Positions 6,627 to 60,865 of a stretch of 64,000 bases of DNA are shown piece after piece. Made by a program: the position numbers and the translations under genes. The notes beneath the pieces are model-generated. The model saw only the letters and a list, made by a program, of their open reading frames with translations, did not search any database and was not told where the DNA came from. The stretch lies in NCBI GenBank assembly GCA_964479945.1, contig CAYZNS010000006.1, positions 1,107-65,106 of the forward strand, read 5' to 3'. Numbering within the stretch: position 1 is the first letter of the stretch; each line of letters starts with the position of its first letter. Origin of the DNA: an uncultured Candidatus Saccharibacteria bacterium (GTDB lineage Bacteria > Patescibacteriota > Minisyncoccia > Ryanbacterales > 2-02-FULL-48-12).

Positions 6627-6712
6627 GTGCACCCACTAGGAGTTGAACCTAGAACCGTCTCATTAAGAGGGAGCTGCTCTGCCTCCACCGGCTGGCGGAT
6701 GAGCTATGGGTG
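6627..6712 (-). tRNA. aberrant tRNA-like gene: perfect 7-bp acceptor stem, canonical T-arm (GGTTCAACTCC), anticodon loop CUCUUAA (CUU, Lys-like) with two stem mismatches, and a 16-nt palindromic hairpin (TCCGCC-AGCC-GGTGGA) embedded in the D-loop
   Basis: Reverse complement GCACCCATAGCTCA[TCCGCCAGCCGGTGGA]GGCAGAGCAGCTCCCTCTTAATGAGACGGTTCTAGGTTCAACTCCTAGTGGGTGCA. 86 nt fits a class-I cloverleaf only if the bracketed hairpin is an insertion. Confidence 0.35.
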
Positions 6713-6770
6713 CTTAGAAAGTGTTTACAAACTCTTCAAAAGCGAAGGTTTTGTAAACACTTTCTTAAAG
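6713..6770. repeat. Palindromic repeat family F, short copy (TTAGAAAGTGTTTACAAAC ... GTTTGTAAACACTTTCTTA)
   Basis: Same termini as the 185-bp copy at 39964-40148. Confidence 0.65.
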
Positions 6771-12359: not shown

Positions 12360-12438
12360 ACACCTCCTTTTTGGTACTCAAAGATTTGCGGTGATTATAT
12401 AGCAAGATACGCGACTTGTCAATACCACTCTTCCCATT

Positions 12439-12519
12439 CCGGATGTGCCAAGCCAAGCTACCCACAATTCCGTCTATACACGGAATGTGTGAAGCTCGGC
12501 TAGTCACAATCCTGGCGCC
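12439..12519. repeat. Hairpin repeat family A copy (GGATGTGCCRAGCCRAGCT-loop-AGCTCGGCTAGTCACAATCCTGGCGC)
   Basis: Shares both arms with copies at 17395, 34932 (inverted), 53057 and the 23983-24298 composite. Confidence 0.7.
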
Positions 12520-16300: not shown

Positions 16301-17388
16301 CGGGAATGGATAAGGAACTACTCGGTAAAAAAGATTTCGTTGACGCTGAAAATCTTAACGGAAGAATTGAGTTCCTTCTGGAAAAGATCAATACAGACCA
16401 TGTGCCAACCCGCCATGACCGCCATGTAGAACATCTGGACAAATTACTGCAATACACGCACGCAAAATTAAAAGATGGTTACATAAATTTCGGCACCAAA
16501 GACAAAAATCTGCAAAACCAATTTGAACTTCTTACAAACTTGAGTAAAGCCCAAGGATACCTTTTCATGCACCTCAATAATACAGGAGCTCAAGACAAGC
16601 AAGACAAGATGGTTGCAAAGGCTTTGGAACTTCACAAACGAAGAGTTTCCGGGGAAAAGAGAAAATATTTGGCGGTACAGTTTGGCAAAGGGGCTCTCAT
16701 AGGCGCATCATTCGCCGCAGGCGGTTGGATTACGCGCCATCTCATGGAAGAGAATGGTTTCTTCTCAAAAGCAGCAGAAGCTGCAAAGGATACCGCCGCG
16801 CCGCCCGAAAACCTGCCGCTAAAGCCGGAGATAGAACCAACACCCGTACTGCCAGCGGAAAAAGCGGCGAAAGCCCCCGCCTGGCAGCCGCTGGAAAAAC
16901 AAACGCCGCAATGGGAACCGTTGGATAATGCAGACGCGGGAACGGGCAGAAAAGGGCTGCCGGCATGGGAACCAGCGGAGAAAGCTTCGGACGCAATTTC
17001 CGCTGCGGAAAAAACAATGACGCTTTCCATTGCGGCGCGAGGGCCGGAGGGTACGCTTATTGATGAGCTTCAAAATAATGCAAAACTGGCAAAAGAATAC
17101 GGGTGGGATGGAACATCTGATATAAAAACATGGGCAGGCGGCGAAGCACACCGTATGTGGCTGGAACATGCGCATAAGGCCGTGAAAAATCCCGATGTAC
17201 TTAACCAAATGAAAAAACTTGGATATCTGAAAGGCCTTTCAAAAACACAAATGGAAGATGAAGATATTGTACTCGGCCGTTACAAAGAGATGATGCTTCG
17301 CATCAAAAAAGGGTCAACTCTTTCATTTGATCCTGCAAAAAAATTACTGGATTTTTCGAAAGTACTATTTTCAAAGGCGCCTAGATAA
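13399..17388 (+). CDS. very large (1329 aa) K/E/A-rich low-complexity, probably coiled-coil hypothetical protein
   Basis: Uninterrupted 4-kb ORF with strongly biased composition. A PRKKK start is followed by long charged repeats. Confidence 0.6.
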   Translation: MPRKKKIVSDASDALEILREAFSPYHTKKYGMPRFAELGKKPRIRLVAAKENGYAGEKDPYLENPASGAEENNNTPPASEPKATLEPLIRNVQEGTLKPEQQKKTVDKKPSGGALSLEDLKKYNEMRLERMEAIPKPPPQPSPEELKTKIEVAARGRAEMQPPAQEAKILWEKTQEEPQKQSVEQSSAPVQPDRLKIIEEQDGSFSLEDEEGNLRAGSLSKADAEKYSDPDKIQELYDKTYLEEDIERDIAQLHRRAPREQTTQDMVGKELLKRSGIKDLTAKGKGFRVDIDNKLYQHIASEEEAKRVADVIKSGKMPDLIKGEDGPYRLRNDESAAEKERVAALHKKAEDLHAQKSKLSPEDQKRLYDLTAKINAQFETQSQEGRVPATEATPIPPDADKQALEVLQEIVSEESRKKPEPPMVSHKETPVKVEAATGGQAEIKAPEMPQAVPDLGTPSLEEVEKQLSESMKTKVGAPEKAVPTGRQAPEPPLAEIPKPELKKSEAAKAKEAKNLKPEGIRLSDLPPEEQEKAKVEAAKVSFEEKTKLLLKEIDSPGGWSREKGQEVLARQLAREKGYSAEAIQKSIDELRSREKDISHRERRMVGRLGLAKKLIEEELGATTKTEEKKEETKRRPYTINETGDIELEKSEYAEVKETAVGKAFSEKFGITAEELARMEGFRDLSDGQQLLVLRNLDQLTRGRIEEEAATIYKEGTQHSKFLGRIFRGVTEGITGKEYKTLAAKKQTEEAIRTGGIALHGAHLAWLTKMAKNTPVEVKEDGSLEINYIYPDTFGPDGIQVAKAYNTAATKFSTIPLAWSWDTATNKQQKEFVKLEKQYQEAREALETLFAKDSNIKAASLFVHNLDNAVKMNQLLNANPELETALQQVDSKRTWKEFAKGVGKSLSEKGAFAGAGYVTRYATISLFGLAAAPAAAGVIKGIRSTMKGAENFREEKKLRRNSTARKEKAGMDKELLGKKDFVDAENLNGRIEFLLEKINTDHVPTRHDRHVEHLDKLLQYTHAKLKDGYINFGTKDKNLQNQFELLTNLSKAQGYLFMHLNNTGAQDKQDKMVAKALELHKRRVSGEKRKYLAVQFGKGALIGASFAAGGWITRHLMEENGFFSKAAEAAKDTAAPPENLPLKPEIEPTPVLPAEKAAKAPAWQPLEKQTPQWEPLDNADAGTGRKGLPAWEPAEKASDAISAAEKTMTLSIAARGPEGTLIDELQNNAKLAKEYGWDGTSDIKTWAGGEAHRMWLEHAHKAVKNPDVLNQMKKLGYLKGLSKTQMEDEDIVLGRYKEMMLRIKKGSTLSFDPAKKLLDFSKVLFSKAPR

Positions 17389-17394
17389 CATTTT

Positions 17395-17466
17395 CCGGAC
17401 GTGCCGAGCCGAGCTATCTCCCGGTACAACCGTGGATAGAGCTCGGCTAGTCACAATCCTGGCGCT
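17395..17466. repeat. Hairpin repeat family A copy
   Basis: ggacgtgccgagccgagctatctcccggtacaaccgtggatagagctcggctagtcacaatcctggcgc. Confidence 0.7.
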
Positions 17467-17516
17467 TGCTTGAATTTTAAACGTTCTTCGTTACACGTTT
17501 TACGTTCTACGAACTT

Positions 17517-18629: not shown

Positions 18630-19737
18630 AGGGCACGCTATAGTATGCTCCATGCAGCGTGAGCATATTTTTGCAAATGCTCTCAACCATATACCGGAGC
18701 TTGGACCGCGCCGTCTGGCGGACCTTTATGCGCGGTTTGCCTCTTTTGAGCGCATGTGGCACGCCGCGTTATCCGATCTTGGTTTGGCTCTCCATAATGA
18801 TGCGCTCGCGCGCGCTGTCGCCGAGAAGCGCCGCGCTATCAATCCCGAACGGGAGTATGAGCGTGCCAGATCCCGCAACATAACAATCATACTGAAAACT
18901 GATCCTGCTTATCCTTCCCACCTGCGAGATCTGCCGGATTCCCCCGCTCTCTTATACATAGAAGGCGCGTTGCAGGCATTTACTCTCCCCGCGCTTGCCG
19001 TTGTTGGTACGCGTTCCCCGACACCTTACGGCCGCGAAGCGTGCCGCGCGCTGGTAGGCCCCGTAGCGGCCGCAGGCATTCCCATTATTTCCGGACTTGC
19101 TGTAGGCATTGACGCAGAAGCGCATAAAACAGCTCTTACGGAAAGTGGATATACGATAGGAGTTTTGGGATCTGGCATAGCGCGCGACGCTCTGTATCCA
19201 ACCCAAAACAAACGCCTCGCCGATGAAATAATCGCGCATGGGGGCGCACTTATTTCGGAATACCCGCCGTTTTTTAAAGCGGCAACATGGACATTTCCCA
19301 TGCGAAACCGTATTATCGCGGGGTTGAGCGCTGCCGTGCTTGTGGTAGAAGCAAAAGAAAAAAGCGGTACGCGCATTACCGCAAATTATGCTGCCGAATA
19401 CGGTCGCGACGTGCTTGCCGTACCAGGCGCTATCTTTTCCGCCAACTCATGGACGCCCCATAGCTTGATCCGGGATGGCGCGGCGGCGGTTACATCAGCC
19501 CATGAAGTGTTCGATGCTCTTGGGTTGCAGCGCCCTACCGTTGCAAGCGCCGTTGCCAATGTATCGCCGGATGAGCAGACAATTCTTGCTCTATTAGAAC
19601 ATGAACCGCGGTCAGCAAACGATTTGGCGCGCGGCTGCGCGATTGGCATCGGCGCCATACAACATATTCTCGCGCATTTTGAAATACGTGGTATGGTACG
19701 GAATATGGGAAACGGAGTGTACAGAAAAGTATCATGA
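18616..19737 (+). CDS. dprA: DNA-processing protein DprA (Smf)
   Basis: LAVVGTRSPTPYGREA...GLAVGIDAEAHKTAL...MRNRIIAGLS is Rossmann-like DprA signature. The dprA-topA order is conserved in many bacteria. Confidence 0.8.
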   Translation: MWRIRGHAIVCSMQREHIFANALNHIPELGPRRLADLYARFASFERMWHAALSDLGLALHNDALARAVAEKRRAINPEREYERARSRNITIILKTDPAYPSHLRDLPDSPALLYIEGALQAFTLPALAVVGTRSPTPYGREACRALVGPVAAAGIPIISGLAVGIDAEAHKTALTESGYTIGVLGSGIARDALYPTQNKRLADEIIAHGGALISEYPPFFKAATWTFPMRNRIIAGLSAAVLVVEAKEKSGTRITANYAAEYGRDVLAVPGAIFSANSWTPHSLIRDGAAAVTSAHEVFDALGLQRPTVASAVANVSPDEQTILALLEHEPRSANDLARGCAIGIGAIQHILAHFEIRGMVRNMGNGVYRKVS

Positions 19738-19740
19738 AAA

Positions 19741-19800
19741 CATTAAAACACAAGAACATAAAAACACTTCTGCTTTAACATTTTTGTGTTTTAATGTTTT
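19741..19800. promoter_or_regulatory. Inverted repeat CATTAAAACACAA / TTGTGTTTTAATG between dprA and topA
   Basis: Seen directly. Candidate terminator or leader hairpin. Confidence 0.3.
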
Positions 19801-19828
19801 CATGTTGTAGTGCTTTAATGAATTACCA

Positions 19829-22093
19829 ATGAAATCCCTTGTAATTGTAGAATCCCCCACTAAAGCCAAAACCATTTCCCGCTTCCTCGGGAAAGATTTT
19901 GTCGTGGAATCCAGCTTCGGCCACATTCGCGATCTGCCTTCGTCGTCGCTAGGCATTGACGTAGAGCATAATTTCACACCCAAATATGTTATTCCCCGTA
20001 AAGCATCGCCGAAGGTAAAAAACTTGAAAGAACTCGCGAAAAAGGCAGATCGTATTATTCTGGCAACTGACGAAGACCGGGAGGGAGAAGCCATAGCGTG
20101 GCACCTCACCCAGGCCCTTGGCCTGGGAAATTCCAATTTCCAAGAAACAATTTCCAAACGAATTACAAACAAAAACAAAAAATCAAATTCAAAACAAAAA
20201 AAAGAACACGCTCCACGCTCCACGCTCCACGCTCCACAAATCCAACGGATCGTTTTTCATGAAATTACCAAAAAAGCGATAGAGGATGCGCTTAAGCATC
20301 CGCGGGAGATTGATGCGCATCTAGTGGACGCGCAGCAAGCGCGGCGTATTTTGGACCGGCTGGTTGGCTATAAGCTCTCGCCGTTTCTCTGGAAGAAGAT
20401 AGTGCGCGGTCTCTCTGCCGGCCGCGTACAGTCAGTTGCCGTGCGGCTTATTGTAGATCGCGAACGCGAAATTGAAAAATTCAAACCACAGGAATATTGG
20501 TCGATTTCCGCACTACTGCGGAAATCGCAATTTCCAATTTCCAATCCACCAACTGGCGGACAATTTCCAAACGAATTTGAAGCACTGCTCATAAAAAAAG
20601 GCAACGAATCGCTGGATAAATTTGCCATAAAAACAAAACAGGCGGCGGATAATATTGTTGCTGATCTCACCGGCGCTTCCTACACCGTAAAATCCGTAGA
20701 GAAAAAAGCAACCCAGCGCATGCCCCCGCCTCCCTTTACCACGAGCACGCTTCAACAGGCGGCATCAGCGCGAATGGGATATTCCGCGCGCCAGACCATG
20801 GTATTAGCCCAGCAATTATATGAAGGCATTGATGTTGGCAACGGCGGCCATACCGGCTTGATAACCTATATGCGCACCGATTCGCTTAATCTATCCGCAG
20901 AATCGCTCACAGCAGCCGCAGTTTATATTACATCCGCGTGGGGTTCTTCGTACGCACTGTCCGCACCGCGCGTTTATAAAACAAAATCAAAGGGGGCGCA
21001 GGAAGCGCACGAGGCAATCCGTCCCACCGACGTTACGCGCGCGCCCGCGCGCATAAAACAATATCTTGACAATAAGCAATATAAATTATACGAACTCATA
21101 TGGCAGCGTTTTGTAGCAACGCAAATGCCACCCGCAATATTCGACAGTACAACTGTCGATATTGCGGCAAATCACAAAACACAAATCACAAATTCCAAAC
21201 AAATTCCAAATTCAAAAATCCAAAATCAAAACATAGAATACCTATTTCGCGCCACGGGGTCCGTTCTGAAGTTTGACGGATTTCTCAAAGCGTACCCCAT
21301 AAAAACGGAGGACAAATTGCTACCGGAACTTGTGGAAAAACAGGTACTTGATCTGGAGAAACTGGAGCCGCGGCAGCATTTTACCGAGCCGCCTCCACGG
21401 TATTCGGAAGCATCTCTTATTAAAGTGCTGGAAAAAAACGGCATTGGTCGGCCTTCCACCTATGCACCAACCATCGGCACCATTCAAGAACGCAATTATG
21501 TGCAAAAAAATGAGGCAAAACGCTTCCAACCGACTGAGATGGGCGTTATGGTAAACGACCTCTTGGCAGAACATTTCCCCGCTATTGTAGATGTGCAATT
21601 TACCGCGCGCATGGAAGAAGACTTGGATAAAATAGCAGAAGGAGAGCGCGCATGGGTGCCGACCATTCGGGAATTTTATGAACCGTTTGAAAAAACCTTA
21701 CTGGAAAAATACGAAACCGTTAAAAAACAAACCACAGACGAAACTACGGACGAGATATGTGAAAAGTGCGGCAAGCCGATGGTAATAAAACACGGGCGCT
21801 TCGGTAAATTTATTGCCTGTTCCGGTTTCCCGGAGTGCCGCAACACGAAACGTTCGTCCGAATCCTCCCCAGCCATTGGCATACCCTGCCCCAAATGCGG
21901 CGCGGAAATTATCCAAAAAAGAACGAAACGCGGTAAATTTTTCTTCGGCTGCAGCGCCTATCCCACATGCGATTTTGCTTTGTGGGATAAACCCACCGGG
22001 GAGAAATGTCCGAAATGCGGCTTGTTGATGGTAGAGAAAGGGAAGAAAGTTGTTTGTTCTGATAAGGAATGTGCTAGGGTATTAGAGCATTAG
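19829..22093 (+). CDS. topA: DNA topoisomerase I with three C-terminal C4 zinc ribbons and three in-frame low-complexity insertions
   Basis: Toprim IVESPTKAKTI. Active-site region LITYMRTDS. Zinc ribbons CEKCGKP...CSGFPEC, CPKCGAE...CSAYPTC and CPKCGLL...CSDKEC. Confidence 0.9.
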   Translation: MKSLVIVESPTKAKTISRFLGKDFVVESSFGHIRDLPSSSLGIDVEHNFTPKYVIPRKASPKVKNLKELAKKADRIILATDEDREGEAIAWHLTQALGLGNSNFQETISKRITNKNKKSNSKQKKEHAPRSTLHAPQIQRIVFHEITKKAIEDALKHPREIDAHLVDAQQARRILDRLVGYKLSPFLWKKIVRGLSAGRVQSVAVRLIVDREREIEKFKPQEYWSISALLRKSQFPISNPPTGGQFPNEFEALLIKKGNESLDKFAIKTKQAADNIVADLTGASYTVKSVEKKATQRMPPPPFTTSTLQQAASARMGYSARQTMVLAQQLYEGIDVGNGGHTGLITYMRTDSLNLSAESLTAAAVYITSAWGSSYALSAPRVYKTKSKGAQEAHEAIRPTDVTRAPARIKQYLDNKQYKLYELIWQRFVATQMPPAIFDSTTVDIAANHKTQITNSKQIPNSKIQNQNIEYLFRATGSVLKFDGFLKAYPIKTEDKLLPELVEKQVLDLEKLEPRQHFTEPPPRYSEASLIKVLEKNGIGRPSTYAPTIGTIQERNYVQKNEAKRFQPTEMGVMVNDLLAEHFPAIVDVQFTARMEEDLDKIAEGERAWVPTIREFYEPFEKTLLEKYETVKKQTTDETTDEICEKCGKPMVIKHGRFGKFIACSGFPECRNTKRSSESSPAIGIPCPKCGAEIIQKRTKRGKFFFGCSAYPTCDFALWDKPTGEKCPKCGLLMVEKGKKVVCSDKECARVLEH
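20128..20240 (+). repeat. In-frame insertion 1 in topA (AATTTCCAA / CAAAAA motifs, then CACGCTC x4)
   Basis: Encodes GLGNSNFQETISKRITNKNKKSNSKQKKEHAPRSTLHAPQ, between conserved AWHL and RIVFHEITK blocks. Confidence 0.55.
20521..20577 (+). repeat. In-frame insertion 2 in topA carrying CAATTTCCAATTTCCAATCCACCAACTGGCGGACAATTTCCAAAC
   Basis: Near-identical to tsaD segment 60317-60366. Confidence 0.6.
21168..21236 (+). repeat. In-frame insertion 3 in topA (AAATCACAAA / AATTCCAAA / CAAAATCAAAA motifs)
   Basis: Encodes NHKTQITNSKQIPNSKIQNQN. Confidence 0.5.
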
Positions 22094-22254: not shown

Positions 22255-23982
22255 ATGGATTGGAAACAATTTAACCAAATACTAACAGACCTCGGCTATT
22301 CCGAGAGTGATCGCGAATTCATATCGCAGGCTTTTTCTTTCGCCCGGAATGCTCATGAAGGACAGAAGCGCGCATCCGGCGAGCCGTATTTTACCCATTT
22401 AGCAAACGTCGGCGCATATATAGCGGAGATGAAGCTGGACGCGCATACGATAGCGGCCGCCCTTTTGCATGACGTACTGGAAGACTGCGCCGTGCCGCAG
22501 GAAGAGCTCGCGCGCCGTTTTGGAGAAGATACGGCATTTCTTGTTGAGGGTGCCACAAAACTTGGCACCGTGCGGTACCGCGGCATACAGCGCAAAGTTG
22601 AGTCGCTGCGCAAAATGTTTCTTGCAGTGGCCCAAGACGTGCGTGTAGTCCTTATCAAACTTGCCGACCGCCTGCACAATATGCAGACAATCCAATATCT
22701 TCCGCCGAAAAAACAACAACGCATCGCAACTGAAACGCTGGAGATCTATGCGCCTATTGCGTACCGCCTCGGCATGGGCGGCATGAAAGGCGCGTTGGAA
22801 GACCTCGCGTTTCCTGTTACGAATCCGGACGAATACGCATGGGTATGCCGCGAAGTGAAACACCGTGTACCGGAAGGCGAACAGTATCTCCGAGAAGAGG
22901 TAAAACCAGCGCTGGAAGAATTCCTGCATGCGGACGGCATACACCCTATTGCCATTGATTTTCGTAAAAAACATCTCTATAGCTTATGGCAGAAACTGCT
23001 TCGGTACAATATGGACTTCGGCCGCATTACGGATCTCCTTGCCATGCGCGTTATTGTAGATACTGTTGAGGATTGTTATCAGACGCTTGGCATCATTCAT
23101 CAACTCTGGAAGCCGCTTCCCGGCCGCATCAAGGATTACATAGCGCTTCCAAAACACAATGGCTACCGAAGCCTGCACACCACCGTGTTCTGCGGTGAAA
23201 ATAAAATAACGGAGTTCCAGATACGAACGCAGGAGATGCACGACGAAGCGGAGCGCGGCGTTGCCGCGCACTGGATGTACACGGAAACCGGCAAGCCGAA
23301 ACGAGGAGCGGCCGTGGAGCGGCAAACTGCATGGATACAAAAACTCTCCGCATGGCAGCAGGAGGTGGGCGCGGCTGAAGACGATGATGAATTTTTAGAA
23401 TCCTTAAAGATAGATTTCTTCAAAGACCGCATTTTCGTCTTGACGCCGAAAGGAGAAGTAATAGACCTCCCTGCTGGGGCAACGCCCGTTGATTTTGCGT
23501 ATGCAATACACTCAGAAATTGGGGACCATATGATGGGGGCCAAGGTAAACGGCAAACTCTCACCCTTTGACCGCGAGCTCGCCTCCGGCGAAACAATAGA
23601 AATTCTCACGCAAAAAAATAAAAAACCGAACGCCGAGTGGCTTTCGTTCATAAAAACGTCGCTCGCCCGCAACCGCATACGTGCCGCCGTCCGTAAAGAG
23701 CCAGAGGGCGCTTCTTCAGGCGCCACCCGCAAAAAGCAGCATCAGCAATATCAATGCGTCATTACCGGCCGCGACCGCGTGGGCTTGCTCAAAGATATAT
23801 CCGCGATATTTTCCGAATTCCGCATTAACATTCAGCACATCGCCATGAATACGAAGAATAAACAGCAATATCCGGATATCGTCATATCGTTTCAGGCACG
23901 CGATGAGCGGCAAGTGCACAGCGTCGCCACGCGCCTCAAAGGTGTCCCTGATATTGAAGAAATTGCAATGAAACGGGTGTAG
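22255..23982 (+). CDS. rel: RelA/SpoT-family (p)ppGpp synthetase/hydrolase (HD + synthetase + TGS + ACT domains)
   Basis: HD motif LLHDVLED. Synthetase core RVIVDTVEDCY...KDYIALPKHNGYRSLHTTV. TGS block IFVLTPKGEVIDLPAGATPVDFAY. C-terminal ACT-like region. Confidence 0.85.
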   Translation: MDWKQFNQILTDLGYSESDREFISQAFSFARNAHEGQKRASGEPYFTHLANVGAYIAEMKLDAHTIAAALLHDVLEDCAVPQEELARRFGEDTAFLVEGATKLGTVRYRGIQRKVESLRKMFLAVAQDVRVVLIKLADRLHNMQTIQYLPPKKQQRIATETLEIYAPIAYRLGMGGMKGALEDLAFPVTNPDEYAWVCREVKHRVPEGEQYLREEVKPALEEFLHADGIHPIAIDFRKKHLYSLWQKLLRYNMDFGRITDLLAMRVIVDTVEDCYQTLGIIHQLWKPLPGRIKDYIALPKHNGYRSLHTTVFCGENKITEFQIRTQEMHDEAERGVAAHWMYTETGKPKRGAAVERQTAWIQKLSAWQQEVGAAEDDDEFLESLKIDFFKDRIFVLTPKGEVIDLPAGATPVDFAYAIHSEIGDHMMGAKVNGKLSPFDRELASGETIEILTQKNKKPNAEWLSFIKTSLARNRIRAAVRKEPEGASSGATRKKQHQQYQCVITGRDRVGLLKDISAIFSEFRINIQHIAMNTKNKQQYPDIVISFQARDERQVHSVATRLKGVPDIEEIAMKRV

Positions 23983-24298
23983 GTGACTAGCCGAGCTCTA
24001 TCCCGGTGCAACCGCGGATGGATATGGATATCTCATCCAGAAAACGCATCATGTCATTCCCGCGTAGGCGGGAATCCAGTTGTCCGCCCGAGGCGGATCA
24101 GCATCCGGATGAAAAAACATATATACCTTCAATGGTAATGGATCCCGCATCAAGTGCGGGATGACAAATTATGTCGCATGTGGTGCGGATTCATAATGTT
24201 TTATCTATAGCCGGGCTCAGCACCGGAAATGCTTACCGGTGCCGTATTCCGGAATGTGCCGAACCCCGGTGGAACCTGAATTAGTCACAACCTTGCAC
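23983..24298. repeat. Composite ~315-bp copy of repeat family A with internal hairpins (ATTCCCGCGTAGGCGGGAAT, CCCGCATCAAGTGCGGG)
   Basis: Left end is GTGACTAGCCGAGCTCT, the inverted family-A arm. Right end has CCGGAATGTGCCGAACC ... TAGTCACAACC. Confidence 0.6.
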
Positions 24299-27180: not shown

Positions 27181-27253
27181 AATGAATTATGAAGATAGAA
27201 TTATGAATTATGGGAAAAAATCTTGTTCCATAATTCCTGATTCATAATTCATC
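27181..27253. repeat. Palindromic element family I (GAATTATGAA ... TTCATAATTC) in the parA-parB intergenic region
   Basis: aatgaattatgaagatagaattatgaattatggg...ccataattcctgattcataattcatc. The same motif class is inserted in tsaD at 59752-59832. Confidence 0.6.
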
Positions 27254-29774: not shown

Positions 29775-30386
29775 ATGTTCGATAAATTTATAAAATTCTA
29801 CGAGCGAACAATACGAAAAATGTGGCACATTCGTGCCGGCGGCACTTTACGTTCGCTGAAAGGCACGCTCGTTGAGACGATGGCCGAGGAGATGGTTTTA
29901 CTCGCATGGAAAAATATCGGCGGCAAATCTTCGCGCATCAAAATCAACAAAACAAAATATCCTATCAGTGATGGAAGGGGAAATGTTTATAAGCTGTCCC
30001 AAGATAAACAGGTTTATATTGATGATGAATTTGTGCTGTCAATCGAGTGTAAGGCATATGCAGAGGTCGCGATGTATAAACGTATATTAGTTGATGCCTT
30101 TTTGCTCAAAAAGCATTTTCCAAAACTCAAATTCTGCCTTTTCCAATTAGAAAGTATGCTTGGCGGTGATTACTCCATTGCCGTTGATCATCCGAACGAA
30201 AGCCCATCGGTCAAAGTTCTTGAGCATCATTTTCCAAATCTCGACATTGAGATCATCACTATGCTGGATGGAGAACGAAACATCAAAGGGGAAATACATA
30301 AAAAGCAGTTTTATAAACCACTTCGTCCCGAAAGATTAGACCACGCAATCAAATACTTTGAGCGCGCATTAAAAGAGCATCTCTAA
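29775..30386 (+). CDS. putative type II restriction endonuclease (PD-(D/E)xK fold)
   Basis: YIDDEFVLSIECKAY gives D...E-C-K. The ORF is translationally coupled to the C gene and convergent with the MTase (4-nt stop overlap). AT-rich. Confidence 0.5.
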   Translation: MFDKFIKFYERTIRKMWHIRAGGTLRSLKGTLVETMAEEMVLLAWKNIGGKSSRIKINKTKYPISDGRGNVYKLSQDKQVYIDDEFVLSIECKAYAEVAMYKRILVDAFLLKKHFPKLKFCLFQLESMLGGDYSIAVDHPNESPSVKVLEHHFPNLDIEIITMLDGERNIKGEIHKKQFYKPLRPERLDHAIKYFERALKEHL

Positions 30387-31885
30387 AATAACTTCGCCGG
30401 AATTTCCTTTATTCGTTTCTCGGAGATTTTGCAGTATTTTGGTGAGATATCTATTCCGATATATTTTCTGCCTGTTTCTGCGGCGCAAAGTGTGGTTGTT
30501 CCCGCGCCGTTGAACGGATCAAGTACAATATCGTCTTGATAGCTAAAGAGTTTCATTAGTCGCGTTGCTAACTCCTTTGGAAACATTGCAGGATGATCAT
30601 ATTCTTTCATGTTTCGTTCGGGAGCGATGGACCATTTTGCATAAACCCATTTCTTGAATTCGTCGCCTGTTATATCGGCTTTTGACGAGTCGCCAGCCTT
30701 TTTGTGTGTATCTTTTGAGAAAACTTCAACAAATTCCCATGTGTATTTTAGATATGGCATACTAGGGCTTTTCCAACTGCCCCATGCAGTATACTTGCAG
30801 TTATAGTTATTTTTCTCCCACAAAATTTCTCCCTTCCAGATCAACCCATGATTAAGTAGTTGTTTTGACATCAAATGATGTGTCGGAATGTAATCTGAAA
30901 ACAACGGCTGCACGTTAAGGCAGAGCCGCCCTCCGGGTTTTAGAATGCGCGCGCACTCTTTCCAAATTGCGTCTATCTTCTTAAAATACTCGTCCCAGTG
31001 AATCGCGTCATTTTTCTCATCGTCTTTATATTCTAGGCCGAAATTATACGGTGGAGATGTAATGATAATATCAATCGAACCAGTTGGGATTTTACGCAAA
31101 ACTTCTTCACTGTCGCCACATATAATTTTGTCTGTAAACTTCTCAATGCCATTTGCTTGTGTAACCGCAAAAGCTTCTTTTTGAAATTTTGTGCCGCCCC
31201 GTGCTCTTTCTTTCGCCTCTCTATTTTTGACTTTTCTTTCTCGATTAAGAAGTTTTGCGTCTGGATAAATTTCTACTGGAGACATAAAACCGCCATCACG
31301 AATAACATCAAGCACTATGCCCTGAATTGAAACATCCCGCCCATTTCTAAAAATAAGTGGCTCCATAGTTTTGTTTGCCGGCTGTAAGCGGATATACTCC
31401 CTCTCTTTGTAAAATTTCTTTAAGGTTGCTTCGTGATTGTCGATGAGAGCTACTACCTTTTGTCCGTTCTCGGCTGTTTCCTGCTGACGCACCAAAACTA
31501 TATCGCCATCATTTATATTTTCATCAACCATGCTACTGCCGACTACACGGAGAGCATAAACTTCTGATGAAGAAGGGATTTTACTTTTTGGGACAGCGAT
31601 CATTTCCTTGTCTTGTATTGCTTCGATTGGTTGTCCGGCGGCAATAGTCCCCAAAAGAGGAATTTTTACCATTGTTTCACGACCAAATGCTTCAATAGAG
31701 CGCGGTTTATTTTCTTCTTTAGACAAAAGTCCTAAATCGCGGAGTTTTGAGACATGAAAATGAGCCGTAGAAACGGATGAGAGTTTTAATTTCTTGCGTA
31801 TCTCGTCAAGAGAGGGAGCGTATCCTTTGCGCCCCTGATAATCGGTTATGAAATCGAGAGCTTGTTTTTGCCTTTTTGTTACCAT
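30383..31885 (-). CDS. Fusion protein: complete LexA-type repressor (wHTH + Ala-Gly site + S24 peptidase Ser/Lys dyad) joined to an N4/N6 DNA methyltransferase
   Basis: N-terminal LexA DNA-binding domain at aa 1-65. Cleavage site LLGTIAAGQPIEA with A83-G84. Peptidase motifs VVGSSMVDENINDGDIVLV (Ser118) and EATLKKF (Lys156). MTase motif IV IIITSPPY. MTase motif I VLDPFNGAGTTT, at the C-terminus. Confidence 0.8.
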   Translation of the reverse strand: MVTKRQKQALDFITDYQGRKGYAPSLDEIRKKLKLSSVSTAHFHVSKLRDLGLLSKEENKPRSIEAFGRETMVKIPLLGTIAAGQPIEAIQDKEMIAVPKSKIPSSSEVYALRVVGSSMVDENINDGDIVLVRQQETAENGQKVVALIDNHEATLKKFYKEREYIRLQPANKTMEPLIFRNGRDVSIQGIVLDVIRDGGFMSPVEIYPDAKLLNRERKVKNREAKERARGGTKFQKEAFAVTQANGIEKFTDKIICGDSEEVLRKIPTGSIDIIITSPPYNFGLEYKDDEKNDAIHWDEYFKKIDAIWKECARILKPGGRLCLNVQPLFSDYIPTHHLMSKQLLNHGLIWKGEILWEKNNYNCKYTAWGSWKSPSMPYLKYTWEFVEVFSKDTHKKAGDSSKADITGDEFKKWVYAKWSIAPERNMKEYDHPAMFPKELATRLMKLFSYQDDIVLDPFNGAGTTTLCAAETGRKYIGIDISPKYCKISEKRIKEIPAKLF

Positions 31886-34882: not shown

Positions 34883-34931
34883 AAGAGTAATCGCGAATAA
34901 TGCGAATTAAGGCGAATATACGAATAGAATA

Positions 34932-35005
34932 TGGCGAACAAGCGCCAGGATGTGACTAGCCGAGCTCTGCACATGAGCGAAGCGAGATGTAAATAGCTCG
35001 GCTCG
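34932..35005. repeat. Hairpin repeat family A copy (inverted orientation)
   Basis: gatgtgactagccgagct...agctcggctcggcacatccgg. Confidence 0.7.
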
Positions 35006-35249
35006 GCACATCCGGAATCGCGAAATACCGTTTATATATCGTGCGCATTCGACTGTCAGTGTCGCTCCTTACAACATTCTTCCACTCTACCCTAAAAAAG
35101 CCCTTTATTGCTTTTGACTTCCAATAAGAAAGTCTACGTAATAGTGATAGTGAGTTATTCCCCTAATAGAACCATTATCTCATGACCACTACCCAGAATC
35201 AAAAATCGAGGGCAAACGCGTAAGTCCTAATATTATTTTATTGTCAAGT

Positions 35250-40597: not shown

Positions 40598-43000
40598 TTA
40601 TACTTTATGCCCGCCGAATACGGCGCGGAGCGTTGAAAGAATTTTTCCGGTAAACGAAGGATTGTTTTTTGAACGCAATCGAAAAAGATATGAACCTTTT
40701 ATGATTGGTGCGGAAACGCCTAACTCCTTGGCGGTTTTCACCGTCCATGCGCCTTCACCTGTATGTGCTACTACACCAGATGCTTTTTTTAAATCCTCCC
40801 CGTATTCCTTAAAGCCTTCTTCGAGCCACCCCGTTAGACGCGAGGTAATAATACTATTCTGATTGTACACATTAGCGACATCTTTCAGGCGAAACTTAAT
40901 CGGAGATTTTTTTAGTATCGTAAATCCTTCCGCGAGCGACTGCATCATTCCATACTCAATGCCATTGTGAACCATTTTTGCAAAATGTCCGGCGCCGGAA
41001 CGCCCCATATATCCGGAAGGCGTATCGGACATCGCGTCAAAAATCGGCCTGCTTTTCTCGTATATTTCTTTTTCGCCACCGGCCATGATGGCAAATTTTC
41101 CGAGTTGAATAGAAACAGGCCCGCCGGAAACGCCGACATCAAGAAAATGTATTCCTTTCGCTTTGAGCTTTTTTGCGCGACGGACAGAATCCTTATAGAA
41201 AGAATTGCCTCCGTCAACGACGACATCTCCTCTGTCTAAGACGTATGCGAGGCCTCCTTCCCCAAAAATTACTTCATCCACGGGCTTACCGGCTGGAACC
41301 ATAAGCCATACGGCGCGCGGCGCGTGAATTTTGTCCACGAAATCTTTTAGGGAATATGCGCCGACAACGCCTTCTTTTTCAAGCGCTCTGGTGGGATCGG
41401 ACGTTTTGTTGAATCCAACGACTCTCCATTTTTTTGCGGCTAGACGCCGCGCAAGGTTCCCGCCCATTTTTCCCAAACCAATGATTCCGATTTCTCCGGC
41501 GCCGGTATCAGTTTTTTTATCTTTGGTATCTGTTCCTTCCCTCACAAAAGACGGACGTGGAATTGTGCCGGATTTGTATTCTATCAAAGGAACAAAATTG
41601 CGTTTCCAGCCATTAACAACCGGGTCAGTAAATTTCCATAAGGCCTCTACTTCTCTAGGCGAAACAAAGAAATCCTGCCTGCCCTCCATCGCCGCGAAAA
41701 GAATTTTCGCATATTCTTCCACGTATTGCGCTTTCGCTTCTTTTTCATACAAGAAGAACGAGAATGTTCTTTCTTCTACCACATGCTCAAATCCCGGCTT
41801 TTTCGTCCAGAAATGAATGATTATTTCATCGTTCGGTTCAAGGCGGAACACAATTTTATTCGGTTCATGAGGTCCGGTTTCGCAAAGATGGCAAACCTTT
41901 GGGTGCTTTAAGGTGAGCACTATTTCCTTTCGCGCCTCAGCCATTCGTTTGCCTGCCTCCATATATATCGGAATTCCTTTCCACCGCGCCTGAGCAAGCT
42001 CCGTTTGCAAGGCAAAATACGTTTCCGTCTGCGAATGCGCTTGTACGCCCTTAATGCTGTCATAGCCCGCGTACCGGGCACGATAGGTTCTGTCCTTAAG
42101 AAGCGCGTCATTCCACGGCGCGAGAGATTCAAGAATCACCGCGCGATTCTCTCGTACCGCATCCCCTCCTCCATTGGGATAGTCCATGGTTAATAGAGAA
42201 AGCATTGAAGGAATGTGATTTTGTCCGACGTCGCGCAGCGCTCCGACTGCGTCATAAAAACTCCCCCGATCTTCCACGCCAATCGTCTCGTGCAGGCGGA
42301 TGTCAATGCGGTCAATAGTGGCGTTGTCCCACGTATTTTCGAAAAGATTATTGGAAAATCTGAAATTCTCCATCCCTTGAACAATCTCCTTAAAAAGATA
42401 GTGGTCAATGCGGTATAGCTGTTCTTCTTTGAAATAAAAGGAAAGCAGCACCTGGAGTTTCCGCGCGCTTTCTAAATCCGTGCCAAAAGGTTTTTCAATA
42501 AGCATGCGGCTCCATCCAAGATTTCCCCCGCACGGCAGATTCAGTTTTACCGCCGCAAGGTTTTTAAAGATATCCCCATATGCCGCAGGCGGCACGGCCA
42601 GATAAAAAAGCTTGTTTGCGCAAACGCCCCAAGAACTCTCCATCTTGGTGATTTTTTCTGTAAGCGCGGAAAAGGATTCTTTATTTTCAAATGTTCCCGC
42701 GTGATATGAAAAATGCTCAAAAAAACGAGAAAAATCGCTTTCATTTATCCTGTCGCCGCCGCGCTTATCCACGGAGTCGCGCAGCAGTTTTTTGAACTGT
42801 TCAAGAGAAAGGTCACTCCGCGAAAAGCCGATAACCGAAAAGCGGTCGGGTAGGCGCTTTTGCTGGAACAGGCGCCAAAGCGACGGAAAAATCTTTTTTG
42901 CCGCCAAATCACCGGTTGCCCCTAAAATGACAAGAATGGAGGGTGTATGTACCCCATTAGAAGTTCGCTTTGTAGAATTGTATTCATTATTTTTTGTCAT
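40598..43000 (-). CDS. zwf: Fusion: glucose-6-phosphate dehydrogenase (N-term ~490 aa) + short 6-phosphogluconate dehydrogenase-like domain (C-term ~300 aa)
   Basis: N-terminal G6PD NADP site ILVILGATGDLAAKKIFPSLWRL and ...RIDHYLGKE-like block. C-terminal GIIGLGKMGGNLARRLAAKKWRVVGFN Rossmann plus 6PGDH C-terminal domain. Confidence 0.85.
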   Translation of the reverse strand: MTKNNEYNSTKRTSNGVHTPSILVILGATGDLAAKKIFPSLWRLFQQKRLPDRFSVIGFSRSDLSLEQFKKLLRDSVDKRGGDRINESDFSRFFEHFSYHAGTFENKESFSALTEKITKMESSWGVCANKLFYLAVPPAAYGDIFKNLAAVKLNLPCGGNLGWSRMLIEKPFGTDLESARKLQVLLSFYFKEEQLYRIDHYLFKEIVQGMENFRFSNNLFENTWDNATIDRIDIRLHETIGVEDRGSFYDAVGALRDVGQNHIPSMLSLLTMDYPNGGGDAVRENRAVILESLAPWNDALLKDRTYRARYAGYDSIKGVQAHSQTETYFALQTELAQARWKGIPIYMEAGKRMAEARKEIVLTLKHPKVCHLCETGPHEPNKIVFRLEPNDEIIIHFWTKKPGFEHVVEERTFSFFLYEKEAKAQYVEEYAKILFAAMEGRQDFFVSPREVEALWKFTDPVVNGWKRNFVPLIEYKSGTIPRPSFVREGTDTKDKKTDTGAGEIGIIGLGKMGGNLARRLAAKKWRVVGFNKTSDPTRALEKEGVVGAYSLKDFVDKIHAPRAVWLMVPAGKPVDEVIFGEGGLAYVLDRGDVVVDGGNSFYKDSVRRAKKLKAKGIHFLDVGVSGGPVSIQLGKFAIMAGGEKEIYEKSRPIFDAMSDTPSGYMGRSGAGHFAKMVHNGIEYGMMQSLAEGFTILKKSPIKFRLKDVANVYNQNSIITSRLTGWLEEGFKEYGEDLKKASGVVAHTGEGAWTVKTAKELGVSAPIIKGSYLFRLRSKNNPSFTGKILSTLRAVFGGHKV

Positions 43001-43140: not shown

Positions 43141-43375
43141 TTACCAAACTGCCCCAAGAGCAAATGGCAACTGGACAAATGGCAACTGGACAAATGGCAA
43201 ATAGCAAATGGGGTCAGTCCCTTTTTTTAAATAAATATCAACATGTGGCCTTTACTTTTAAGGTTAGCATGCGTGTGCCTTTATGAGAATGCGGAATTAT
43301 TAATAAAGCTCTGCAACAGAATTAATGGGGACTGACCCCATTTTCCATTTTCATTTTCATTTTCCATTTTCCCAA
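43141..43375. mobile_element. MITE-like element: tandem CAAATGGCAA(CTGGA) arrays on the left and their inverted complement on the right, flanking ~120 bp AT-rich core
   Basis: caaatggcaaatagcaaatggggtcagtccc ... ggggactgaccccattttccattttcattttc. Confidence 0.5.
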
Positions 43376-50530: not shown

Positions 50531-51535
50531 AAAAACCTCCTGAAAAATTTGTACCAGACGAATTCGTCTGGGTAGTTTAAAGAACTTTCAAAAATTTTCC
50601 TCCCGCCACAGACGACCACCCTATGCCAGAACTTTTTTTGTCCTTATGATCGTCTTTGGTAGGAAAGGAAACTCATCAGCGTATTTATTCGAAATGATTC
50701 GAAATGGCCCGCTTACATGCCTTTAACGTGGGTTAGCTTCCTTACAGCCCCACGACACATTCAATGTTTTCTCTGCACGATAATCCCCCGCCGCCGCGGC
50801 TGCTTCCCCGTTGGAACAAGAAGCATCTGCCACTCAAACGCGGCCTGCTTCGAGTCCGCCTCTTTCCGAGGCAAACCGTTCCAACTGAACCCTCCCTTAC
50901 GAAGGATGGTGTTAGCCACCTTGTGCAGTTCGTGAGACATGTTACCTCCTTTTTCTTTTTTGTCTCTTATCCCTCCCGAATGTGCGGGCCGTGATGGGAG
51001 ACTAGACAGCCCGCATACTCGAGAGAGAAAAACCTTTTCAAATGCAACTATTCGCCATTATACTCGGCTATAAAATTTTGTCAAGTGTTCATGACATATA
51101 ATACCATTATATTTCAGAAATATGTTGTAATATAAGGATATTTTACATGTTTTATTTAATATGTATTTCTAACATATTTTGTTATACAACGCATGTCTGT
51201 AAAAAATATTTCTGTCAGTGGCATTTGACAAATATTTGAGTACGTGCTATGTTTCAGGCGGGTGCACCTTGAACAAGAATCTTAAACCGGCGGCTCTCGG
51301 CCGAGAACGAGAGCGCAAATCTGGTTTCAGGGGGATTTTAAACGAAAAAGGGAGCTCTGGATTCCCGCCTCCGCGGGAATGACACTCTGATGGTGCGCCT
51401 GCTTGGTTCATTTTGCTCCCACTCCCAAAAAAGAAATCCTCCTGAAGAATAGGAGGACAAGATGGGCGGACATTAATCTAATTTAATGATTCTCTTGTCT
51501 AAATACGACAAAGGCCGCTTTAGCAACAAAGCGGC

Positions 51536-52943: not shown

Positions 52944-53056
52944 AAACGTTTTACTATTATATATATGCTTTACATTTTATCAAGAAGTAAAATAATGTCA
53001 AGAGCGGTATTTGTAAGAGCTCACAAACTCGGATAATTGTGTAACATTTGCTATCT

Positions 53057-53128
53057 CGGATGTGCCAAGCCGAGCTCCACATCGCCCTACGGGCGTGTGT
53101 AGAGCTCGGCTAGTCACAATCCTGGCGC
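53057..53128. repeat. Hairpin repeat family A copy
   Basis: cggatgtgccaagccgagct...agagctcggctagtcacaatcctggcgc. Confidence 0.7.
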
Positions 53129-53207
53129 TTACTCAAGTTTGTGAGTTCTTACCGGTACTTTCTTGAAAATTATAAGGGGAGGCGATTGCTCGTCTCCCCT
53201 TTTTTCT

Positions 53208-59530: not shown

Positions 59531-60865
59531 ATGATAATTACCGCAATAGAAACATCGTGCGATGAGACGGCAATTGCCGTTATTCAAACCGCCGGCGGAG
59601 GACGCGGCTTTCGCGTACTCTCCAATTTGGTGCTTTCGCAAGCTAATCTTCATGCCGAATGGGGCGGCGTGGTACCGAATTTGGCTAAACGAGAACACGA
59701 AAAAGCTTTGGTACCCATGCTTTTACAGGCATTGGACGAAACAGGGCTTTTTGAATCAAGAATCATGAATTATGAATCAAGGAAAAAAAACAAAACCCAT
59801 AATTCAAAATTCATAATTCATAATTCAATTCTAGAAAAGAATGAAGAACTTAGAAAATCTTTTGAAGCGCATATTACAAGCATCTCGCGCCCAAACATAG
59901 ATATAATCGCCGTAACGCAGGGGCCGGGGCTGGAACCGGCATTATGGGTAGGCGTTAATTTCGCGCGGGCGCTCTCGGCGCTGTGGAATATTCCGTTGTT
60001 AGGTGTAAACCATATGGAAGGACACATCGTCTCGGCGAGAATCGCCGAGACGGACGCAAAACGTAAAACGCAAAACGTAAAACTACAACTCAAAACTCAA
60101 AAACCTAAAACCTATCACCTAAAACCTATCACCTGCCCCGCGCTTGCATTGCTGGTCAGTGGTGGTCACACGGAATTGGTACTTATGAAAAAGCCGCTGC
60201 ACTATGAAATTATCGGCGAAACGCGGGATGACGCGGCAGGCGAAGCGTTTGATAAGGTGGCACGGCTTCTCGGCCTTCCCTATCCTGGAGGACCCGCCAT
60301 AGCTCAGCAAGCTGATCTATGGAATTTCCAATTTCCAATCCGCCAGCTGGCGGACAATTTCCAAACAAATTCCAAAATCAAAAATCAAAATTCCAAACAA
60401 AAATTACGAGTTACGGATTACGAGTTACGGATTACGCTCCCTAGGCCGATGATAAACACAAAAGACTTTGACTTTTCGTTTTCCGGCTTAAAGACTGCCG
60501 TTCTTTATCTCATACGAGACTTAGAAAAATGCGGTGAAAACATCAAAAAACTTCGTCCTGCCATCTGCAAAGAATTTCAAGATGCCGTGGTAGATGTGCT
60601 TGTTGCAAAAACCATCCGCGCGGCAAAGGAATATAAGGCAAAAACGATTCTTCTTGGCGGCGGCGTCGCCGCAAATAAGGAACTCCGCAAGCGCCTTGCG
60701 GAAGAAATTAAAACTCAGCTACCACGTTCTACGTTCCACGTTCCACGTTCTACTCTTACGGGTGACAACGCGCTCATGATAGCCGTCGCGGCAATGGAAC
60801 GCGCAAAACAAGCAAAAAAAACAACATGGAAAACGCTCAAACCGGACGCAAATATGCGATTTTGA
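59531..60865 (+). CDS. tsaD: tRNA N6-adenosine threonylcarbamoyltransferase TsaD (Kae1/YgjD) with four in-frame low-complexity insertions (~100 extra aa)
   Basis: MIITAIETSCDETAIAV. GVNHMEGHI metal site. LVSGGHTEL. GGGVAANKELR. Confidence 0.9.
   Translation: MIITAIETSCDETAIAVIQTAGGGRGFRVLSNLVLSQANLHAEWGGVVPNLAKREHEKALVPMLLQALDETGLFESRIMNYESRKKNKTHNSKFIIHNSILEKNEELRKSFEAHITSISRPNIDIIAVTQGPGLEPALWVGVNFARALSALWNIPLLGVNHMEGHIVSARIAETDAKRKTQNVKLQLKTQKPKTYHLKPITCPALALLVSGGHTELVLMKKPLHYEIIGETRDDAAGEAFDKVARLLGLPYPGGPAIAQQADLWNFQFPIRQLADNFQTNSKIKNQNSKQKLRVTDYELRITLPRPMINTKDFDFSFSGLKTAVLYLIRDLEKCGENIKKLRPAICKEFQDAVVDVLVAKTIRAAKEYKAKTILLGGGVAANKELRKRLAEEIKTQLPRSTFHVPRSTLTGDNALMIAVAAMERAKQAKKTTWKTLKPDANMRF
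59752..59832 (+). repeat. In-frame insertion 1 in tsaD: palindromic GAATTATGAA/TTCATAATTC element (family I)
   Basis: Encodes ESRIMNYESRKKNKTHNSKFIIHNSIL. Confidence 0.55.
60052..60134 (+). repeat. In-frame insertion 2 in tsaD (AAAACGTAAAACG / CTCAAAACTCAAAA / CCTATCACCTAAAA tandem motifs)
   Basis: Encodes DAKRKTQNVKLQLKTQKPKTYHLKPIT, right after conserved HMEGHIVSARIAE. Confidence 0.55.
60322..60440 (+). repeat. In-frame insertion 3 in tsaD: CAATTTCCAATCCGCCAGCTGGCGGACAATTTCCAAAC + CAAAATCAAAA + (TTACGAGTTACGGA)x2
   Basis: Encodes NFQFPIRQLADNFQTNSKIKNQNSKQKLRVTDYELRITL. Contains perfect palindrome CCGCCAGCTGGCGG. Confidence 0.6.
60721..60755 (+). repeat. In-frame insertion 4 in tsaD: (CCACGTTCTACGTT) tandem motif
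   Basis: Encodes PRSTFHVPRSTL. A similar ACGTTCTTCGTTACACGTTTTACGTTCTACG lies intergenic at 17480-17515. Confidence 0.5.

Follow-up and report, generated by a model that had tools for sequence, protein, structure and literature searches.

A near-invariant 16-bp palindrome inserted in frame in tsaD and topA of a Patescibacteria genome belongs to a dispersed hairpin-repeat family

The Rickettsia palindromic elements (RPE; Ogata et al. 2000 Science 290:347; cited in PMC6649704, PMC2229807, PMC3733652) are described in the accounts consulted as lying in frame in housekeeping genes as well as between genes, and are regarded there as selfish. The GTAG- and CGTC-tagged REP elements have been reviewed by Di Nocera et al. 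(2013, PMC3733652): the GTAG class is moved by RAYT transposases, the CGTC class has no known transposase, and some REPs are intragenic, in replication and repair genes. [quoted passage not shown] Lastly, the mitochondria of Nematomorpha contain perfect inverted repeats within coding sequence, both arms being translated, for which template switching or conversion has been proposed (PMC6649704). Here we report on a 64-kb stretch of contig CAYZNS010000006.1 from an uncultured Candidatus Saccharibacteria bacterium (hereafter the window), in which the genes tsaD and topA share an in-frame segment built around a 16-bp palindrome, TCCGCCAGCTGGCGGA, that we name P16 and usually write CAA-P16-CAA. P16 is best described as a coding palindromic repeat, related to RPE and unusual in three ways: a 16-bp invariant core, a cross-phylum spread, and 10-bp heptamer-type direct repeats.

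The two host genes, identified by their Pfam matches, and the components of the shared module are as follows.

59531-60865, + strand: host gene tsaD, 444 aa as against ~340 aa in solved homologues; Pfam TsaD
19829-22093, + strand: host gene topA, 754 aa; Pfam topoisomerase I
60323-60371, + strand: 49-nt module, tsaD copy
20529-20577, + strand: 49-nt module, topA copy, read ..NPPTGGQ..
60339-60354 (tsaD): P16, TCCGCCAGCTGGCGGA, perfect 16-bp palindrome, read ..IRQLAD..
20545-20560 (topA): degenerate core TCCACCAACTGGCGGA, with two changes
60329-60338 and 60355-60364: exact 10-bp direct repeats CAATTTCCAA around the tsaD core
20535-20544 and 20561-20570: exact 10-bp direct repeats CAATTTCCAA around the topA core
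60329-60364, + strand: the unit CAATTTCCAA, P16, CAATTTCCAA in tsaD
predicted peptide of the segment: NFQFPIRQLADNFQTNSK
tsaD product: junction-covering stretch ..LWNFQFPIRQLADNFQTNSK..
topA product: junction-covering stretch of the insert ..SQFPISNPPTGGQFPNEFEALLIK..

The two modules agree at 46 of 49 bases and their similarity breaks off sharply at either end; over all registers of the window, a match of this quality has a chance probability of ~1e-14. An earlier note, made from these letters alone, had pointed out a near-identical segment translated in both genes, and this description holds, both copies lying within long ORFs identified by Pfam. The palindrome, which it gave as 14 bp, is indeed perfect in tsaD but measures 16 bp. 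The topA core is degenerate as the note said, yet the topA copy is older or derives from a different variant and is not a mere degenerate version of the tsaD one. Direct-repeat flanks are present as well, in the form of exact 10-mers, whereas the general AATTTCCAA repeat proposed by the note gives way to a form, CAANNNNCAA, whose four middle bases are locus-specific. The note had named beforehand, as its refuting test, a fall of the similarity to chance level against the background of AATTTCCAA repeats. The 9-mer is not over-represented in the window (45 matches with at most one mismatch, 37 expected) and the similarity stays far above chance; two cores matching at least 14 of 16 bases have p ~3e-7 each per site. 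It is the palindrome, not the 9-mer, that carries the non-chance signal. As RNA or single-stranded DNA, P16 is predicted to form a hairpin with a 6-bp GC-rich stem and a 4-nt loop, and the 56-nt tsaD segment that contains it has a predicted fold of -15.5 kcal/mol (z = -3.6). The tsaD DNA is base for base the same in three independently assembled metagenome contigs, and an assembly artefact is therefore unlikely for this segment. These two P16 copies are the only ones in the window.

When one genome for each GTDB species was scanned with the 22-mer pattern CAATCCNCCANCTGGNGGACAA (CAA-core-CAA, three free positions), at least 119 stretches were among the matches listed, as compared with ~4 expected by chance; all scan counts are lower bounds, and the source genome is not among the listed matches. 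The compared stretches from other genomes are labeled below by L-numbers. The record names include Gottesman-, Levy-, Shapiro-, Roizman-, Moran-, Taylor-, Nomura-, Wildermuth-, Kuenen- and Doudna-bacteria, Saccharibacteria and Microgenomates, and also Bacteroidota. The Bacteroidota contigs are genuine, L056 encoding a Bacteroidota-specific EF-G2 and L008 and L122 typical genes from outside the Candidate Phyla Radiation (CPR); in this phylum P16 is one hairpin inside longer multi-hairpin intergenic repeats (L056/L067/L099; L113/L122/L125). The same loci (844 kb) contain 23 more perfect 16-mers with other flanks, and 52 additional copies with at most three mismatches, that is ~1 per 16 kb of P16-ascertained DNA; contig JBMNNJ010000001 has 3-6 copies per 8-kb stretch. 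Of the three positions left free in the pattern, the one in the loop is variable in 26 cases (G or A) and the two in the stem in 2 cases each; one compensatory double mutant, TCCGTCAGCTGACGGA, was found. Many copies sit at the tip of extended palindromes, and three contigs of one metagenome-assembled genome (L061, L081, L086) have ~42 nt in common, flanks included. P16 is thus a dispersed repeat family across Patescibacteria (CPR), present also in Bacteroidota, and its near-invariance implies either a conserved recognizing machine or recent horizontal spread. The Rfam 15 search at gathering score returned no match to the module, tRNAs being the only matches in the window, and in the literature searched nothing was found on the core sequence, on its three peptides, or on MITEs or palindromic repeats in Patescibacteria. 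Metagenomes scanned with the CAATTTC-flanked module gave 11 stretches, all of them in other genes of other organisms (GatA-like, Mur-ligase-like). A phage vector was considered and rejected: the 22-mer has 0 matches in IMG/VR, and the 55 matches of the bare 16-mer lie mostly on high-GC contigs with unrelated flanks, none with the CAA/heptamer architecture. As a separate observation, a nested variant at L077:2349-2393 has its P16 halves TCCGCCAG ... CTGGCGGA split by another GC-rich palindrome, giving hairpins within hairpins.

The flanks of P16 follow the consensus tCAAAAwT-CAA-[P16]-CAA-AAwT-CAAAA. The N4 of the left and right heptamers is the same in 41 of 117 copies (5.8 expected), and an exact 10-bp direct repeat abuts P16 in 19 of 117 (1.8 expected), or in 37 of 117 when one mismatch is allowed (10.8 expected). 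Length 10 is the sole direct-repeat length enriched next to P16, exact 17-bp repeats being found around 0 of the 117 copies; the typical unit is therefore a 10-bp repeat, P16, and a 10-bp repeat, 36 nt in all. About half of the copies that were not selected by the pattern have CAA on one side only, and the minimal asymmetric unit may be CAA+P16, 19 nt.

A simple ORF call, which assigns genic and intergenic positions only crudely, places 68 of 120 P16 copies in genes in the sense orientation, 7 in antisense, and 45 between genes, so that 75 (63%) fall within ORFs. Where the neighboring genes are co-directional, intergenic copies have no preferred orientation (14 same, 11 opposite), which rules out a mechanistic strand bias; the simplest explanation of the sense bias within genes is therefore that selection acts on the encoded peptide or transcript, and not that the insertion process is itself biased. 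Each of the three sense frames is in use, namely NPPAGGQ (31), QSASWRT (24) and IRQLAD (13). A protein-level motif is ruled out by this usage, and the conservation of P16 accordingly lies at the DNA or RNA level. Read directly from its sequence, P16 has zero stop codons in all six frames, and all copies within genes preserve the frame and are free of stop codons. The hosts are bona fide housekeeping proteins, among them class I aminoacyl-tRNA synthetases (8 of 66), GT4 glycosyltransferases (5), TsaD (3), MnmA (3), LigA (2), Toprim proteins (2), and glutamate dehydrogenase. In other CPR lineages, P16 lies in TsaD at another loop (site 2; L063, L093) and in TopA at site 1 (L080).

Orthologous sites differ in whether they contain P16. 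At the topA site of the window (site 2), all 18 of the closest TopA homologues lack an insert; at the DNA level, L137 reads AAA CCG CCG and L138 ATC CCT CCC in place of the 45-49-nt module of the window, and L139 carries in the same frame a degenerate P16, TCCGCCAGCCAGCGGA, without heptamer flanks. The corresponding tsaD site (site 3) is occupied as follows.

Window: P16
L006: pure (AATTTCC)x4 array
L004: GC-rich palindrome of 35 nt, also present at topA site 1 of L137
L140: long GC-rich hairpin
L141: 20-bp perfect hairpin
L142: the GTCATTCCCGCGAAAGCGGG.ATCC hairpin as an inverted doublet, in frame

P16 is thus present or absent at orthologous sites and turns over at tolerant sites. As compared with L006, the window has three AATTTCC units and a 19-nt insertion at tsaD site 3, with a net difference of 12 nt; the aligned sequences are consistent with a non-triplet insertion offset by loss of one 7-nt unit. 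The palindrome of L004 represents a second family, of 35 nt (CCAGCCTCGACTCGTCCCGAGTCGGGCGAGGC[G/A]GGC), found after CAATTTCC in L004:1740-1790 (tsaD) and L137:1820-1870 (topA), the same gene pair being struck by different hairpin families. In L142, the hairpin GTCATTCCCGCG.AGGCGGGAATCCAG occurs as an in-frame inverted doublet within TsaD site 3.

Both module copies are insertions relative to solved homologues. As compared with solved structures, TsaD has additional segments at aa 74-120, 172-198 and 262-299, and TopA has extra residues relative to solved topoisomerase I at aa 100-138 and ~234-244, together with a 21-aa gap at ~447-467. An AlphaFold model of TsaD (20 homologues) has a mean predicted local distance difference test score (pLDDT) of 83. 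The three tsaD inserts, at aa 77-88, 177-188 and 268-297, are the only stretches that score under 50, and most of the remainder lies above 90. These are therefore predicted to sit in disordered loops of an otherwise confidently folded protein. The inserted segments and related arrays of the two genes are listed here.

59752-59828, + strand: tsaD insertion 1, in-frame hairpin with tandem heptamer arms (ATGAATT/ATGAATC ... AATTCAT); fold z = -3.6; pLDDT <50 at aa 77-88
60028-60052 and 60054-60134, + strand: tsaD insertion 2, 11-bp perfect hairpin followed by AAAACGT/AAAACCT/ACCTATC heptamer arrays; pLDDT <50 at aa 177-188
60317-60436, + strand: composite tsaD insertion 3, made of AATTTCC units, P16, CAAATTC/AAAATCA units, and a GATTACG/AGTTACG array at 60402-60436
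60722-60753, + strand: CCACGTT heptamer array, encoding PRSTFHVPRST near the TsaD C-terminus
20127-20240, + strand: topA insertion 1, CAATTTC, AAACAA and CACGCTC arrays; aa 100-138 in the comparison with the solved homologue
21168-21235, + strand: topA insertion 3, CAAATCA/CAAATTC arrays; 21-aa gap in the solved homologue

Insertion 3 of tsaD adds ~32 aa as compared with E. coli TsaD (aa 262-299; pLDDT <50 at aa 268-297), and its CAAATTC/AAAATCA units are 85% identical to topA 21188-21241. The three further tsaD insertions reported in the earlier note are all present as sequence features, but the CCACGTT array substitutes for a native segment of similar length and adds none; relatives have other heptamers at this place, ACTTACN in L004 and AATTCCT in L006. 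The place of topA insertion 1 is taken in relatives by the 35-nt palindrome (L137), by TCAGCCTCCGGCTGA (L139) or by (GAAAAGC)x4 (L138), and topA insertion 3 is missing from the closest homologues. In the tsaD hairpin at 60028-60052, the first arm consists of conserved host codons and the second arm is their reverse complement. Perfect hairpins of 9-13 bp occur at the same 5' edge of TsaD insertion 2 also in L004, L006, L141 and L093; their arms take up the host codons GH-IVSAR/SALL.. and differ in sequence per lineage, which amounts to covariation within a coding region. Such host-arm hairpins point to template switching or to active hairpin maintenance.

P16 belongs to a much larger guild of hairpin-plus-heptamer modules. 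Period 7 dominates the tandem repeats: in the window it accounts for 15 of 42 arrays, and in other CPR loci (L007-L125) for 294 of 907. These period-7 arrays comprise many different heptamers, both genic and intergenic. Two of the hairpins that stand between genes in the window are the following.

27183-27252: intergenic hairpin with heptamer arms, between parA and parB; 74% identity to tsaD insertion 1; fold z = -4.1
19733-19820: ~90-nt hairpin with 7-8-nt repeat arms, between the dprA stop and the topA start

In the relatives L137-L139, dprA and topA abut or overlap without a spacer, and on this comparison the dprA-topA hairpin is another inserted module.

When set beside the described systems, P16 resembles the RPE in being palindromic, genic in frame as well as intergenic, presumably translated, tolerated in loops, and devoid of a known transposase. 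Length and host, on which the comparison rests, set it apart: RPE-1 measures 100-150 bp and is restricted to Rickettsia, whereas P16 has a 16-bp core and a 36-49-bp unit, occurs in many CPR classes and in Bacteroidota, and is flanked by locus-specific 10-bp heptamer-type repeats. With the REPs it shares the short, GC-rich, dispersed stem-loop with a short tag beside the stem, sometimes found as dimers, and the GTCATTCCCGCG..GGGAAT hairpins of the window and L142 resemble the CGTC class. However, P16 is without a GTAG or CGTC tag, its stem being bordered by CAA (or TTG) on one side or on both; it forms a perfect dyad whose stem has 6 bp, as compared with 8-9 bp in CGTC REPs; 75 of 120 copies lie within ORFs by the crude caller, while REPs are mainly extragenic, downstream of ORFs; and it is conserved across phyla, while REP families are species- or genus-specific. 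The MITEs with ORFs are likewise non-autonomous, with inverted ends, direct-repeat flanks and in-frame fusion to host ORFs, but they measure 100-200 bp and have TA duplications, whereas P16 would consist of two abutting 8-bp inverted ends with a 10-bp duplication and no parent insertion sequence was found in the P16-bearing DNA searched. Taken as two 8-bp halves, P16 has the terminal inverted repeats of a MITE, trivially so as for any palindrome, and at 16-49 bp it lies outside the MITE size range of 50-500 bp. The coding palindromes of Nematomorpha resemble the host-arm hairpins at tsaD 60028-60052 and in relatives; they reach 284 bp and are locally made, and unlike P16 they do not form a dispersed family with an invariant core.

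Two further systems deserve comparison. The mobile G+C clusters of yeast mitochondria are GC palindromes of tens of bases in A+T-rich DNA, with short direct-repeat flanks, optional between strains and occasionally in frame (var1); to our knowledge their mechanism is still unknown and no heptamer periodicity has been reported for them, and they differ from P16 in compartment, organisms and sequences. Cyanobacterial HIP1 and the uptake sequences USS/DUS are short, exact, over-represented motifs, found also in coding DNA, which are clade-wide, arise by substitution, and reach ~1 per kb, the DUS dialects being family-specific. P16 differs from these by being an insertion with flanking repeats, by its density of ~1 per 16-30 kb, and by a core that is the same across phyla.

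We favor, with a probability of roughly 60%, the explanation that the segment shared by tsaD and topA represents two copies of a small, non-autonomous, REP/RPE-like selfish hairpin repeat. Copies would arise by a copy-paste process acting on the hairpin, driven either by a trans-acting enzyme producing a 10-bp target duplication or by replication template-switching or short-homology conversion between A-rich heptamer tracts. The unit copied within a genome would be ~40-50 nt, core plus flanks; a non-triplet insertion (16+10 or 19 nt) would be re-framed by gain or loss of 7-nt units, and the element, neutral or selfish, would be translated into the mature protein. The enzyme option is weakened because no enzyme was found in the DNA searched, and the local-process option because one invariant 16-mer occurs in more than 100 genomes. 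The small mobile or recombinogenic element postulated in the earlier note is well matched by a dispersed family (at least 119 stretches and 23 perfect copies), present or absent at orthologous sites and used in all three frames; the target-site duplications that it proposed to look for may be reflected in the 10-bp repeat, exact in 19 of 117 copies against 1.8 expected, and the check for an encoded nuclease or transposase that it also proposed yielded no candidate among the window proteins.

Several points speak against this explanation. The 10-bp flanks share the consensus CAAAAWTCAA and could be part of the element or a preferred target instead of a duplication; the closest relatives are 67-74% identical at the protein level, and no exact empty site or clean target duplication was obtained from them. 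Among the window proteins no nuclease or transposase is obvious, the sole candidate, an IS630-like ORF (4444-4917), being without a catalytic domain; tblastn of 1.03 Mb of P16-bearing DNA for a Y1/HUH transposase, with an IS608 TnpA sequence as the query, returned no match; and no parent insertion sequence or longer element bounded by P16 half-sites was found in the P16-bearing DNA searched, apart from the nested variant of L077. The window, through which the source genome is seen, has 2 copies only. Near-invariance across phyla is odd when compared with REPs and MITEs, normally confined to single lineages, and may rather be a sign of conserved function; ascertainment by an exact pattern contributes part of the apparent invariance. 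A bolder version would make P16 the recognition hairpin of a trans-acting mobilization system common to CPR and Bacteroidota, and the smallest transposable unit known (16 bp, two 8-bp inverted ends, 10-bp target duplication), the 7-nt arrays and loop hairpins being footprints of it and of sister families and heptamer slippage restoring the frame; we consider this version speculative and unlikely.

Among the rival explanations, one dispenses with dedicated mobility altogether and derives P16 and the heptamers from error-prone replication and repair (7-nt slippage, snap-back or template-switch synthesis, quasi-palindrome correction), the tsaD-topA identity then reflecting ectopic short-homology conversion between two CAATTTC tracts. 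The dominance of period 7 (15 of 42 arrays in the window, 294 of 907 elsewhere) speaks for it, as do the insert-edge hairpins that copy adjacent host codons as reverse complement and differ per lineage, the many P16 copies at the tip of extended palindromes, the CAATTTC flanks common to both window copies, and the CAATTTC tracts of L006 that lack P16 at the same tsaD site. However, local templating cannot give rise to one and the same 16-mer time and again, in more than 100 genomes that belong to different classes and phyla. The core is constant while the flanks vary between genomes, and conversion through flank homology therefore cannot spread it across different heptamers; moreover, the closest relatives have no CAATTTC tract at topA site 2 that could act as recipient. 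We hold this explanation to be unlikely as an account of P16. Alternatively, P16 could be a functional cis-element under selection, such as a DNA site bound by a conserved dimeric protein, a signal for DNA uptake, or an RNA hairpin (an antisense terminator-like structure blocking antisense transcription, or one stabilizing mRNA). Its core is near-invariant across phyla with the variation concentrated in the 4-nt loop, parS-type sites are perfect dyads of the same length, CPR bacteria are thought to rely on DNA uptake, and dprA adjoins topA; in addition, CAA-P16-(CAAAAAT)n gives, when read on its reverse strand, a GC hairpin and then a U-rich tract (ATTTTTG units), like an intrinsic terminator. 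Yet many flanks, for instance CAATTTC, yield no reverse-strand U-tract, the intergenic orientation is unbiased (14 and 11), and the density (~1 per 16 kb in ascertained loci, 2 per 64-kb window) is far under that of uptake signals. Positions are not conserved either, the same loop holding six different modules in six relatives, and copies come as insertions in protein loops, not as substitutions. A functional site thus appears improbable.

The remaining two explanations have little in their favor. For an assembly or sequencing artefact it can be said at most that amplification chimeras can yield palindromes, but the same tsaD DNA occurs in three independent metagenome assemblies, and P16 copies appear in the assemblies of numerous studies, among them a 598-kb contig with an isolate name suggestive of long reads. 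Removal of the segment before translation, as for an intron or intein, agrees poorly with in-gene copies that keep the frame and avoid stops, since a spliced element would need neither; the insert is 12-40 aa of low complexity with no intein domain (the Pfam matches are the TsaD and TopA domains only) and no Rfam match. Artefact or removal is very improbable. As for two AATTTCCAA microsatellites that would have converged by chance, the window contains no fewer AATTTCCAA-like 9-mers than expected (45 and 37) and A-rich heptamer tracts are common in it, but an identity of 46/49 that includes a 16-bp GC-rich core (p ~1e-14) and the presence of this core in at least 119 other stretches against ~4 expected make it practically negligible.

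The window contains other repeats and genes of interest. The hairpin GTCATTCCCGCG.AGGCGGGAATCCAG, CGTC-REP-like and of the 'VIPA.AGIQ / SFPRKR' type, occurs at 24052-24079 and 51357-51384 (- strand), both intergenic, and also in L060, L069 and L096. Five intergenic repeats of ~90 nt, at 12431-12530, 17387-17477, 53048-53140, 34931-35018 (- strand) and 23962-23999 (- strand), have conserved ends TTCCGGATGTGCCAAGCCGAGCTA ... TAGAGCTCGGCTAGTCACAATCCTGGCGC and a variable inner hairpin, with no match in Rfam; this five-member family could be a structured RNA or a MITE. The divergent intergenic region 43160-43372 has inverted arrays, (GCAAATG)n and (CATTTTC)n, around GGGGTCAGTCCC / GGGACTGACCCC and a 106-nt AT-rich spacer. 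The IS630-type ORF at 4444-4917 (+ strand, 157 aa) comprises helix-turn-helix domains only; an inverted repeat (4404-4432 / 4441-4469) spans its start, and an AGGATTC heptamer array (3962-4042) lies upstream of it, after an SNF2 helicase gene. The FtsH gene at 6834-10088 (- strand) encodes 1084 aa in total, with an intein carrying a LAGLIDADG homing-endonuclease domain inside. The ORF at 30383-31885 (- strand) encodes a LexA-like repressor (DNA-binding domain and S24 peptidase) fused to an N6/N4 DNA methyltransferase domain, and that at 40598-43000 (- strand, 800 aa) a fusion of glucose-6-phosphate dehydrogenase and 6-phosphogluconate dehydrogenase. A tRNA at 6628-6713 (- strand), reported by Rfam with 46 bits and not by ARAGORN, overlaps the 5' end of a predicted rhomboid ORF.

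A substantial share of the extra length of such CPR proteins consists of repeat modules, not of lineage-specific domains, as in TsaD with its 444 aa as compared with ~340 aa, and these modules affect how proteins from a very large part of bacterial diversity are annotated, aligned, placed in phylogenies and predicted in structure. Whether P16 owes its constancy to a conserved recognizing machine or to recent horizontal spread, either would be new biology in organisms not yet grown alone, and its short exact core makes a phyletic-profile search for a partner protein feasible. The combination of hairpins, 10-bp repeats and 7-nt periodicity also makes it possible to ask concretely by what means essential genes come to retain non-triplet insertions, a question that is still open for the Rickettsia RPEs and for the G+C clusters of yeast mitochondria.

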